Part shown: positions 6,001-9,000 of the stretch, in pieces
Layout of the letters: every line of letters starts with the position of its first letter
Position numbering within the stretch: the first letter of the stretch is position 1
DNA from: a virus
Taxonomy: Duplodnaviria; Heunggongvirae; Uroviricota; Caudoviricetes
Virus record (IMG/VR): IMGVR_UViG_2718218139_000004
Coordinates: 1 to 16,560 of that record
Length of the DNA: 16,560 bases
Strand: one strand, 5' to 3'
Position numbers: made by a program

Positions 6001-9000
6001 TTGGTACTGACTGATGGCGCTCTGGTCTGCGGCATTGTGGTATTGCTGTGGCCGATGATGAAAGAACAGAATGAATAATTCTTGACTTTTTTGTTTACTG
6101 TTTATTAAAAAATCAACCGCATGGTGAATCCTCCTTGGAGGGGCTAAATGATCGAGTTTTAAGGGCACGTAGCGAGTTCTGTTTGATCATTGCAGAACTT
6201 AGCGGGAGGCGCCATGCGTACATCACTAGTGTTATTCCTTTTATCATTTTCCTTGTGAGTTCTGGCTGCGCATTGCGCAGCCTTTTTTTTATGACCTGCC
6301 ACTGGCAGATGGTCATCCTGTGATTTGATTCCGGTTCCGGCTTTTTAACTCTGTTCCTGTACACGGGAGAAATTCGATGTCGATTAAACATTACGATGTT
6401 GTCAGGGCGGCGTCGCCGTCAGACCTTGCGGAAAAGCTGACACACAAACTGAAAGAGGGCTGGCAGCCATACGGCGGACCGGTTGCCATTACGCCGTACA
6501 CACTGATGCAGGCGGTGGCTATTGAAGGAGAGCCACAGGTCGGCCCTTCTAACCTGTATTTCAAAATCAGAGAGGACCGTCGTAAGGCGGCGCGGGGAGA
6601 GTAAAGCGATGAAGAAAAAATACGAACTGGTTGTTAAAGGGATAAATAATTACCCGGATAAGATTACTGTTACTGTGGCACCGGAAATTGGTGGGTATCC
6701 GTCACTGTTGTTGCCAGATGTGGCGATTAGTCTTGACCGTACTGAAGGAGCCACGCTGGAGTTTTACGAAGCTGAGGCGAAAAAGCAGGCGAAGCAGTTT
6801 TTCATGGATGTTGCTGCCGGGTTATGTGAAGGGGATGGTCCGTTGCCGGAAAAGCGGCCCATCATTTTAGAGGCGCAGGACGTGTTGATAACCTACAGAG
6901 GAAAGCTACCGGGAAGAATTACTGGTTCTCTGAAGACGCCACCGACGGCATTGCGGTCAGAAAAAGATGATATTGAATCACGTATTGAACAACTGGAGTG
7001 CTATATCTCTGAATTGAAAAAAGCACCCCAACAAAAGATGAGGTACTTGCATTAGACGAAATGAAAGAAACTATTCTTGATCTTGCGGCGCGTCTAAGCT
7101 GCGCTTCACGGTCGAAAGAGCATTTTCAGCAGCCCTGAGGAATCTTTTATCATCACGAGCATCGGTCTTTGGTATTTCTTTAATGAGATGTTCCATTTCG
7201 GCGATCAGGTAATCTGACACAGCGTTATTCTTACCAAGTGCATCCATGGCTTTGATTATCTTTGGGAGAAGAAAACCGACCTGTAACTCAAGAGTGAAAA
7301 TTCTGTCAAAAAGCGCTGTATTTTCTTCATTCATATCTGTTCATTATCTTTGCGAGGCAGCCATCTCACATTGTTGGGTTTACGCCAGTGCCCACCACCG
7401 GCGGGCTGAAGACTTAACATATCCAGGGGTCCGGAACCGATAAATCCTGATAAATATCCATGAACGCAAAAATCAGATACGGCCTGTCGGCTGCCGTTCT
7501 GGCGCTGATTGGTGCAGGGACGTCTGCGCCTGAAATCCTCGACCAGTTTCTTGACGAAAAAGAAGGTAACCACACCACGGCATACCGTGATGGTGCGGGG
7601 ATCTGGACCATATGCCGCGGTGCCACCCGAGTGGATGGTAAGCCTGTCGTCCCGGGTATGAAGTTATCGAAGGAAAAGTGCGACCAGGTTAACGCCATTG
7701 AACGTGATAAGGCGCTGGAGTGGGTGGAGCGCAATATTAAAGTACCGCTGACCGAACCCCAGAAGGCGGGTATCGCGTCATTTTGTCCTTATAACATTGG
7801 CCCCGGTAAGTGTTTCCCGTCTACGTTTTACAGACGGATTAATGCAGGTGATCGAAAAGGTGCCTGCGAAGCGATTCGCTGGTGGATTAAGGACGGTGGC
7901 AGAGACTGCCGTATCCGCTCAAATAATTGCTACGGTCAGGTATCCCGGCGAGACCAGGAAAGTGCACTGGCGTGCTGGGGAATTGACAGATAAGCAGAAT
8001 ATTTTGCTGAAAAATGACGTTGGCCAACGCGGGCGGATAACACGAAATCCTGCGAACTGGCAAAAACTAAGTGAATAAAAGTAAAACCCCGTTTGTTGGC
8101 TGCAAACGGGGTTTTGTGTTTCTGACCTTGAGTAAGGCAAGGGAGAACATGGGAAAGTATAAACGAATTCTGTTGAGATTGACTATGAAAAACGGCCTTG
8201 AACTGAAAGCGCCTGTAACTGATGACGTCAGCAGAGCGCTGGCTTTTGCTATTAAGTGGGTGGCGGTCGGTATTGCTGTGTCTCCGATGCTGTATGGGCT
8301 GGCAAAACTGGTCATTGCGTTGAAATCGTGAAGAGGATTAAGCATGTCAGACAAGCTCATAACGCTGGCGAAGATCCTCTGTGTAATCGTCGGCATTTCA
8401 TTTTCACTAATGCTGGTTGCTATTTGCTTTTCCACTGCCTGGCGCGTCTTAACTTTGTCATGGCTGGTGGGGTGAGGGGGATATGAACCGTGTTCTGTGT
8501 GTGGTGATTATTGTCCTGCTGGTAGCCTGTGGTGTGCTTAGTCTGGGGCTGAATCATTACCGCGATAACGCCATTACCTACAAAGCGCAACGCGATAAAA
8601 AAGCCAGTGAGCTGAAGCTGGCGAACGTGACAATTACTGATATGCAGGTACGCCAGCGTGATGTCGCTGCACTTGATGCCAGATACTCGAGGGAATTAGC
8701 CGATGCGAGAGCTGAAAATGAAACTCTGCGTGCTGATGTTGCCGCTGGTCGTAAGCGCCTGCGCATCAACGCCAACTGTCCAGGCTCCTTGCGTAAAGCC
8801 CCCATCACCTCCGGCGTGGATAATGCAACCGGTCCCCGACTGGCAGAAGCCGCTGAACGGGATTATTTCATCCTCAGAGAACGGCTGATGGCAATGCAGA
8901 AGCAACTGGAAGGAGCACAGGAATATATCCGTACCCAGTGTATACCGTGATGTTTTGTTATGAAGGTGTTACTGGTAACGTTAAGGTAATTTAACAAAGA

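Follow-up and report, generated by a model that had tools for sequence, protein, structure and literature searches.

What do two additional small genes do between the endolysin and the spanins of a lambdoid phage? Lysis cassettes of lambdoid and Shiga toxin (Stx) phages are a textbook subject and are commonly depicted as S, R, Rz, Rz1. The question arises from IMG/VR virus record IMGVR_UViG_2718218139_000004, of which we analyzed positions 1 to 16,560 (16,560 nucleotides (nt), referred to as the window). It represents the late region of a lambdoid prophage of Escherichia coli; positions 7400–9000 match several complete E. coli chromosomes with 99.9% identity. Here, two open reading frames (ORFs) of 60 and 43 amino acids (aa), termed ORF60 and ORF43, lie behind a hairpin between R, which encodes an endolysin of the signal-anchor-release (SAR) type, and Rz/Rz1 (Table 1). 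We conclude that hairpin, ORF60 and ORF43 make up a mobile module that is accessory to enterobacterial lambdoid lysis cassettes and encodes two unrelated one-helix membrane micro-proteins. As their role we infer that of inner-membrane helpers or timers of the pinholin and SAR-endolysin step, to which we assign a probability of about 40%; that the genes and the module exist is far more certain than this role in lysis.

ORF60 and ORF43 are conserved coding genes

RefSeq annotates both ORFs as coding sequences for hypothetical proteins. In PHROG they match families of unknown function, i.e., phrog_1115 (E = 6.6e-42), phrog_4493 (3.6e-29) and phrog_3246 (7.1e-19) for ORF60 and phrog_4906 (E = 7.3e-24) for ORF43. 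We determined ratios of nonsynonymous to synonymous substitutions (dN/dS), pooled pairwise over the distinct alleles in the fetched loci. In frame, dN/dS was 0.12 for ORF60 and 0.37 for ORF43, compared with 0.99 and 2.4 or 0.74 and 1.56 in the respective other two frames. As controls, R gave 0.09 (other frames 2.9 and 1.7) and Rz 0.44 (0.93 and 1.30). Because the pairs are phylogenetically non-independent, these values give the direction of selection and not its exact strength. Moreover, 22 of the 28 variable columns of ORF60 fall on third codon positions. We conclude that ORF60 and ORF43 are genuine conserved coding genes under purifying selection.

A sequence-only reading of this stretch had proposed both ORFs, each with one transmembrane (TM) helix, and their conservation in related prophages between SAR endolysin and Rz/Rz1 bears it out. 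Two of its details needed correction: the ATG of ORF60 is found at 8149 instead of 8150, and the spacer between the two ORFs measures 12 nt instead of 13 nt, whereas the 7 nt between ORF43 and Rz were as given. The assignment of a TM helix holds for ORF43, which is strongly hydrophobic; ORF60 is only marginal. Both genes are preceded by Shine-Dalgarno sequences, AGGGAG at 8140–8145, just 3 nt before the ORF60 ATG, and AGAGGA 6 nt upstream of ORF43. ORF60 and ORF43 are separated by 12 or 14 nt in 161 related loci, and the distance to Rz is mostly 2 or 7 nt. With this tight packing, translation of ORF60 and ORF43 is probably coupled into Rz.

XECs191 of strain Sakai (O157:H7), the Stx-phage allele of ORF43, has been reported as translated (Hücker et al. 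2017, PMC5597208). In lysogeny broth (LB), its transcriptome and translatome values were 30.0 and 12.6 reads per kilobase per million (RPKM), respectively, with a ribosome coverage value of 0.43, and for the product an inner-membrane location and a single TM helix were predicted (PMC5597208). This ribosome profiling (RIBOseq) signal is weak, and its reads may map to several prophages.

The best 17-residue Kyte-Doolittle mean of ORF43 is 2.9, similar to that of the Rz anchor, and AlphaFold2 models one continuous helix of residues 2–42 with a predicted local distance difference test score (pLDDT) of 90.5. There are two lysines at the N-terminus, and the tail is short and uncharged. Protein alignments place C13, G17 and S21 on the conserved N-terminal half of this helix, a pattern of small residues that, judged from the alignments, would be typical of helix–helix packing. 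ORF60 reaches a Kyte-Doolittle mean of only 1.9 in a segment that contains K36, P46 and K53; a rough sum on a Hessa-type scale makes it about as weakly hydrophobic as the SAR domain of the endolysin. Its AlphaFold2 model has helices at residues 3–14, in the basic N-terminal part, and 24–59 (pLDDT 72). The models of both proteins are bare helices, and their C-termini extend 2–10 residues beyond the hydrophobic helix.

A second start codon is predicted within ORF60. Met13 is nearly invariant, and in the variants examined GAGG or GGAGG is found 5–9 nt before its ATG (GAGA in the window lineage). The Shine-Dalgarno-like motif and the Met13 ATG are kept even where the amino acids at those codons differ. 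Gene callers, like the annotators of Sakai, frequently picked the short form, e.g., for Sakai ECs_1094 and P0142. The long form has 12 additional residues, of which four are basic and none acidic. ORF60 may be made as a long basic form of 60 aa and a short form of 48 aa, and this predicted dual start recalls dual-start holin genes.

Pfam (E <= 1 for both ORFs), NCBIfam and PADLOC gave no match for ORF60, ORF43 or relatives of 28 aa and 44 aa. A profile search with the ORF60 family against 1.84 billion representative proteins retrieved only 23 clusters, all of 20–87 aa, and no informative domain fusion. The family is narrow, with relatives in E. coli, E. marmotae and Salmonella.

Table 1 Features of the window around ORF60 and ORF43, with the evidence on which each assignment is based.
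Feature	Position	Strand	Evidence or remark
ORF60 (WP_001303555.1), basic N-terminal helix and marginally hydrophobic C-terminal helix	8149-8331	+	RefSeq, PHROG, dN/dS, AlphaFold2
ORF43 (WP_001280929.1), single strongly hydrophobic TM helix, conserved C13, G17, S21	8344-8475	+	RefSeq, PHROG, dN/dS, AlphaFold2
Bidirectional intrinsic-terminator-like hairpin, 5' end of mobile module	8083-8115	.	A-tract, 13-bp stem, T-tract
Predicted internal start Met13 of ORF60, 48-aa short form	8185-8331	+	inferred from Shine-Dalgarno-like GAGA 6 nt upstream
Predicted antisense sigma-70-like promoter in ORF60 codons 3-13	8156-8185	-	consensus match: TAGTCA, 18-nt spacer, TATACT
Predicted cis-antisense RNA of ~75 nt over ORF60 start codon, Shine-Dalgarno sequence and leader	8075-8149	-	ends at hairpin
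Endolysin R, SAR-type, 177 aa	7460-7993	+	PF00959, E = 1.9e-25; RefSeq 'lysozyme', gene name rrrQ
Conserved stretch of ~90 nt 3' of R stop	7994-8082	+	56 distinct versions compared; common to Stx phages
Rz i-spanin	8483-8950	+	PF03245, E = 2e-46
Rz1 o-spanin, embedded within Rz	8703-8888	+	PF06085, E = 4e-19
Holin remnant, last ~56 nt of class II holin gene	6549-6604	+	in-frame fusion with DUF1737 fragment, ORF 6377-6604
YdfR/DUF1327 gene	6609-7055	+	
87-aa gene	7071-7334	-	phrog_18136
ORF over R 3' end	7887-8063	-	resembles Sakai XECs106
Very AT-rich stretch with T-runs	9230-9400		
PerC-family regulator gene	9415-9729	+	identical in sequence to XECs104

A module that begins with a terminator

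The perfect 13-bp hairpin that the sequence-only reading had noticed behind the endolysin gene is present. Its arms AAAACCCCGTTTG and CAAACGGGGTTTT flank the loop TTGGCTG in 13 perfect pairs, with a T-run on both strands. With an A-tract before and a T-tract after the stem, it can be read as an intrinsic terminator on either strand. The RNA fold has −22.1 kcal/mol (z = −4.1), and none of 200 shuffled sequences was as stable. Perfect pairing is found in this lineage only, most relatives having one G.U pair. Across 12 variants, 92.8% of the stem cells were paired, and two pairs carry double-sided changes, in Salmonella.

Equivalent hairpins with different stems were found 5' of ORF60-family genes in three further loci, L262, L178 and L180. 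Stem sequences hence differ between contexts with pairing kept, i.e., they covary, and in all five contexts a bidirectional terminator-like hairpin stands 25–35 nt 5' of the ORF60-family gene. In the four contexts covered by a simple promoter scan, the DNA from hairpin to ORF contained no promoter-like site on the plus strand. Genes that lack a promoter and follow a terminator can be transcribed by read-through alone, which in a lambdoid late operon means by Q-modified polymerase. Such a layout fits a product of the lytic phase only and fits a product that serves the lysogen poorly.

The left mosaic junction coincides with the 3' end of the conserved stretch behind R. E. coli and Stx phages have kept this stretch, as has Salmonella in part (GGCGGATAACAC.AAATCC), and its conserved flanks surround a hypervariable core of about 20 nt. 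In Stx phage 933W (L003) and the other loci with ant in this place, the window hairpin is absent, and another terminator-like hairpin, GGCACCGTAATGGTGCC then TTTGTCATTT, lies before ant, about 100–130 nt past the R stop.

Three unrelated cassette types have the module 3' of the endolysin gene. One combines an S21-type holin and an R21-type SAR lysozyme; in the second, a PF16080 holin accompanies two other SAR-like lysozymes; and the third has holin_8 and holin_3_7 together with a GH108 endolysin. In Salmonella, ORF60 stands behind two different SAR-like lysozymes paired with PF16080 holins, and Rz follows directly without ORF43. In L262, from another E. coli phage type, hairpin, ORF60 and ORF43 follow the GH108 endolysin gene of a cassette with PF16931 and PF05449 holins; next comes a small lipoprotein gene, and there is no lambda-type Rz. 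The predicted lipoprotein in place of Rz (L262 1831–1986; 51 aa, lipobox LVGC) could be, from its sequence, an outer-membrane lysis component. The ORF60 family is thus not fixed to one holin family, as its members accompany holins of PF04971, of PF16080 or of PF16931 plus PF05449, and some occur where there are no lysis genes: in L178 the ORF60-family gene follows a tail-fibre assembly gene, and L180 carries tandem ORF60 paralogues after nanS-p at the prophage end.

The gap between R and Rz as an insertion slot

ORF43-like DNA is present in 1749 of 5426 complete E. coli genomes (32%), with up to 11 copies per genome, and ORF60-like DNA in 2111 of them (about 39%). ORF43 is encoded in 276 phage records, mostly of Stx-converting phages; in 933W it lies unannotated at 27438–27566, between ant and Rz. 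The Stx phages examined have ORF43 and lack ORF60. In a survey anchored on Rz and covering a single genome of each bacterial species, the endolysin gene directly adjoins or overlaps Rz in the many lambda copies and in nearly all other Enterobacterales sampled, which agrees with the sequence-only reading that lambda and phage 21 have no genes in this slot. A tiny TM ORF in the gap was found only in an Escherichia sp. genome, behind the same hairpin. The slot is an insertion relative to lambda-type cassettes.

A catalogue of 161 Escherichia loci, gathered using ORF60 and ORF43 as queries, describes what fills the gap. The commonest content in this query-biased sample is ORF60 followed by ORF43. 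Other gaps contain ant then ORF43 (Stx phages); ant, ORF43, a 38-aa ORF and a 28-aa ORF; a 31–44-aa ORF, ORF43, the 38-aa ORF and the 28-aa ORF; or ORF60 then the 28-aa ORF. ORF60 has short relatives in the 38-aa and 28-aa ORFs. Prophage Sp4 of Sakai, the gap of which is shorter than and different from that of the window, has a 50-aa ORF60-family member with a 28-aa-type C-terminus directly 5' of Rz. A third family of one-helix ORFs of about 44 aa (DFSKLIRE...WKF...) uses the same slot and hairpin (L182 2326–2499; L004 691–826); the L182 member ends in IRWW, with its stop 2 nt before the Rz start.

A gap with such changing content invites the view that the micro-proteins are moron cargo, i.e., small membrane proteins that serve the lysogen by superinfection exclusion or by modulating host membrane proteins, placed in a permissive gap of the late operon. 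The R–Rz gap, which in Stx phages also accommodates ant, is a hot spot of mosaicism, its small ORFs differ in number and order, and the positions after tail-fibre genes and at the prophage end are classic for morons; moreover, the Sakai ORF43 allele showed low-level translation in uninduced cultures. However, a terminator directly upstream everywhere and no sense promoter are the opposite of what a lysogen-expressed gene needs. Instead of the plan promoter, gene, terminator, the downstream end is coupled to ORF43 and Rz, with a downstream terminator only in L178. PADLOC gave no match, and the module recurs behind three unrelated endolysin genes. We regard moron cargo as unlikely, although it comes first among the rival explanations.

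In the catalogued E. coli architectures, a tiny one-helix ORF always touches the Rz start (2 or 7 nt). The micro-proteins might accordingly help the spanins, acting on Rz/Rz1, e.g., on the TM anchor of Rz, or they might mainly deliver ribosomes to Rz. The type of the ORF43 C-terminal tail even tracks the type of the Rz N-terminus; both lie within 50 nt of each other, so that the association is expected from physical linkage alone and is uninformative on function. A copy of the Rz anchor was considered for ORF43 and rejected, as ORF43 has no similarity to Rz. Neither ORF60 nor ORF43 has a periplasmic domain or a lipobox, the L262 module is not followed by a lambda-type Rz, and purifying selection on the peptides speaks against pure ribosome delivery. 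The Rz anchor, moreover, tolerates replacement by foreign anchors. A function as spanin helpers hence appears improbable to us, and we place it third among the rivals.

A predicted antisense RNA over the ORF60 start

On the minus strand, a sigma-70-like promoter is predicted within the first codons of ORF60. Promoter-like sites at the homologous position were found in six of eight family members from five contexts, with scores of 9–10 of 12, a score reached by 2.7% of random 120-nt windows from the same loci. The window, L170 and Salmonella L175 share TAGTCA and TATACT at a spacing of 18 nt (score 9 of 12). L262 has TAGTCA and TATAAT (18 nt, 10 of 12), Sakai Sp4 TGGACA and TATACT (18 nt, 10 of 12), and L178 TTGGCC and TATACT (16 nt, 9 of 12). 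Three different −35 sequences thus keep at least 4 of 6 matches with a spacer of workable length, for which a post hoc estimate gives a chance of about 1 in 1000 if they are independent.

As the −10 element ends 7 nt inside ORF60, transcription would begin approximately at the ATG, cross the Shine-Dalgarno sequence and the leader of 33 nt and terminate at the hairpin. This RNA of about 75 nt is a prediction; its computed fold consists of a 5' stem-loop and the terminator (−24.6 kcal/mol, z = −5.0). Synonymous variation of ORF60 is about fourfold lower in codons 3–18 (4 extra codons over 16 positions) than in codons 29–60 (32 over 32), which fits an extra constraint at the DNA level. Rfam gave no hit at gathering score in the whole window and only chance-level matches at E <= 10 around the hairpin.

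The predicted arrangement also brings to mind a toxin-antitoxin system of type I for prophage maintenance or abortive infection, with ORF60 as toxin, the antisense RNA as antitoxin and no role in lysis. Small hydrophobic single-helix proteins of up to about 60 aa are typical of such toxins, even if the hydrophobicity of ORF60 is marginal, and a cis-antisense RNA with its own promoter and terminator would cover the ribosome-binding site; related prophages, moreover, carry hok-type loci. In contrast, ORF60 has no promoter of its own, the antisense RNA is predicted, and no known type I family was matched in Rfam or Pfam. A toxin-antitoxin system would also leave ORF43 and the tight coupling into Rz unexplained. 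We consider this explanation rather unlikely and rank it second among the rivals, behind moron cargo.

Relationship to the holin

In the window, the holin gene upstream of R is defective, as the sequence-only reading had stated. By blastn against the related locus L001, a 2.3-kb segment (L001 5836–8149) is missing, which removes the first ~150 nt of a class II holin gene and leaves the remnant of Table 1. The fused ORF matches in Pfam DUF1737 and the final 14 positions of PF04971. Relative to NZ_CP039404, the deletion joins the DUF1737 N-terminus of a nanS-p-like esterase gene to the last class II holin codons (6260–6604), so that no intact holin is left in this prophage.

From the broken holin, the sequence-only reading had derived a possible relocated or non-canonical holin/antiholin pair, which would take over hole formation. 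This argument fails: the deletion is private to this lineage, of 54 distinct loci that carry both ORFs and extend far enough upstream, 52 encode a class II holin of full length, and in inducible phages (PhiR12 series, 933W) the ORFs stand alongside a holin gene. The module is, moreover, found with three different holin families. Each protein has one hydrophobic helix, which might suit such a pair, and the conserved internal start recalls dual-start holin/antiholin genes; a pinholin, however, has two transmembrane domains (TMDs), a SAR-like TMD1 and a hole-forming TMD2, and a basic cytoplasmic C-terminal tail. Neither ORF60 nor ORF43 matched the holin profile PF04971 (Pfam, E <= 1).

A weak resemblance to pinholins exists in ORF60. 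Residues 36–51 resemble residues 32–46 of TMD2 of the class II holin (single-comparison E = 0.002; p = 0.0035 with composition-preserving shuffles of the protein). At the DNA level, 11 nt are identical, with a score of 17 compared with 9.0 ± 1.2 for shuffled sequences, none of 500 scoring as high. In protein P0217 from a metagenome contig of 554 nt, the N-terminal half of the holin is joined to the C-terminal helix of ORF60, probably by a deletion between the similar 11-nt stretches in which the endolysin gene would have been lost; holin and ORF60 sequences can thus recombine there. We conclude that ORF60 and ORF43 are not holin substitutes, and we rate holin replacement as very unlikely, the last of the four rivals. 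The other suggestion of the sequence-only reading, i.e., lysis regulators, is plausible from the sequence features.

A possible role in the timing of lysis

We propose the following working model for ORF60 and ORF43 as helpers or timers. The module would be transcribed late, when Q-antiterminated polymerase reads through the upstream terminator. In the lysogen, this terminator would block sense read-through into ORF60, and the antisense RNA of about 75 nt, ended by the same hairpin, would cover the ORF60 ribosome-binding site. ORF60 would then contribute a weakly hydrophobic helix that resembles a SAR domain or holin TMD2, and ORF43, which belongs to a separate family and is usually coupled to Rz, would serve as a stable anchor and act by helix–helix packing.

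Several observations weigh against this model. The likeness to TMD2 spans only 16 residues, does not extend to a PF04971 profile match of ORF60 and is absent when the ORF60 helix is compared with the Salmonella PF16080 holins (p = 0.5–0.7). Furthermore, insertion of the long form with its N-terminus inside would place the helix antiparallel to TMD2. The antisense promoter is a consensus match, and its −10 element derives from conserved Lys-Tyr codons. A Sakai small-RNA list from Hfq crosslinking has no entry at the Sp4 copy, and transcription-start tables of EDL933 contain no matching sequence. L178 and L180 carry ORF60-family genes away from lysis genes. Finally, the ORFs are absent in lambda, K-12 Qin and the other sampled Enterobacterales prophages; they are therefore dispensable for lysis as such.

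A bolder version would unite all elements into a portable lysis add-on that puts the terminator first: a bidirectional terminator, an antisense-silenced dual-start micro-protein like a SAR domain or holin TMD2, and a micro-protein with a stable TM anchor, which together would insert behind unrelated endolysin genes and set the lysis time. We hold this version to be doubtful. If it were true, it would be a new class of phage lysis regulator that combines Q antitermination with antisense repression in the style of type I toxins, and its ORF43 component might affect the timing of toxin release in Stx phages.

Neighbouring genes

The lysis region of the window is ordered as holin remnant/DUF1737 fusion, YdfR/DUF1327 gene, 87-aa gene on the opposite strand, R, small-ORF region and Rz/Rz1. 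The junction between holin and endolysin is hence also filled, so that extra genes are found at both junctions of the cassette. The N-terminus of R has the weakly hydrophobic, Gly/Ala-rich segment of a SAR endolysin. Over its 3' end, the opposite-strand ORF resembles Sakai XECs106, for which a RIBOseq signal was reported (translatome RPKM 34.5 in LB); this hints at leftward transcription across the 3' region of R. Beyond the lysis genes and the AT-rich stretch with T-runs follows the PerC-family regulator gene, identical in sequence to XECs104, which is strongly translated in Sakai (translatome RPKM 352.6 in LB). In the same place, Sakai Sp4 has pchA (ECs_1091), known as an activator of the LEE island.

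Comparison with known systems

Both ORFs were already known as hypothetical proteins, and one ORF43 allele as a published ribosome profiling hit. The XECs191 and PHROG sources concern the same families, but neither assign a function nor analyze the context, and they do not connect the ORFs with Rz or the endolysin. A literature search for either RefSeq accession found none, and the ORFs are not mentioned in the searched passages of papers on Stx-phage late-region genes. In the literature and databases searched, we found no description of the R–Rz slot with its shuffling micro-protein genes, of a terminator-first module that hops between endolysin genes, or of the conserved antisense promoter and the internal start. 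In 933W and many other Stx phage records, ORF43 is unannotated directly 5' of Rz. If the micro-proteins tune lysis, burst timing would be affected and, via ORF43 of Stx phages, possibly also Shiga toxin release; they would then have to be counted when lysis cassettes serve as tools. With no role in lysis, the module would still be a clean example of a small-gene set that hops between phages with its own silencing elements. The phage lysis field gains a genuine, if modest, lead in a system that has been studied very thoroughly.

Accessory lysis proteins of the non-essential, tuning type include LydB of phage P1 and LysA of phage P2. Mu gp25 releasin (PMC9239132) and the holin modulator ORF52 of BSPM4 (PMC11657625) are likewise non-essential and tune holin/SAR-endolysin action. 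None of these four proteins is homologous to ORF60 or ORF43. Mu gp25 has 99 aa, an N-out/C-in topology and an acidic cytoplasmic DUF2730 domain of 73 aa (PMC9239132). We considered a releasin for ORF60 and ORF43 and rejected it, as they have no DUF2730 match, essentially no soluble domain and a different architecture.

Closest in context is S21 of phage 21 (PF04971), where pinholin S21 68 and the dual-start antiholin S21 71 are small membrane proteins of the same cassette and late operon. ORF60 resembles them in its TMD2-like stretch and in the possible second start, by which the longer product has extra positive charge. In contrast to S21, ORF60 and ORF43 each have a single helix, not two, and lack a charged C-terminal tail, the ORF60 extension comprises 12 residues with a net charge of +4 compared with 3 residues and +1 in S21, and the module is found alongside an intact holin as well as in cassettes of other holin families.

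The hokW-sokW locus of Sakai prophage Sp5 encodes a small inner-membrane toxin under control of an antisense RNA and aids phage release after induction (PMC8621323). ORF60 shares with it the small inner-membrane protein in a lambdoid prophage, its antisense RNA being a prediction. There is no sequence relation to Hok/Sok, and ORF60, unlike hokW, lacks a promoter of its own and lies behind a terminator in the late operon. In phage P22, sar RNA starts within the 5' end of ant, extends over the ant ribosome-binding site and is ended by a bidirectional terminator immediately upstream. The layout predicted for the ORF60 antisense RNA is like that of sar and ant, although the target in P22 is a soluble antirepressor with no sequence relation to ORF60. 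Silenced twice, by a terminator and by the predicted antisense RNA, ORF60 would resemble the small membrane toxins in the way phages and bacteria handle them.

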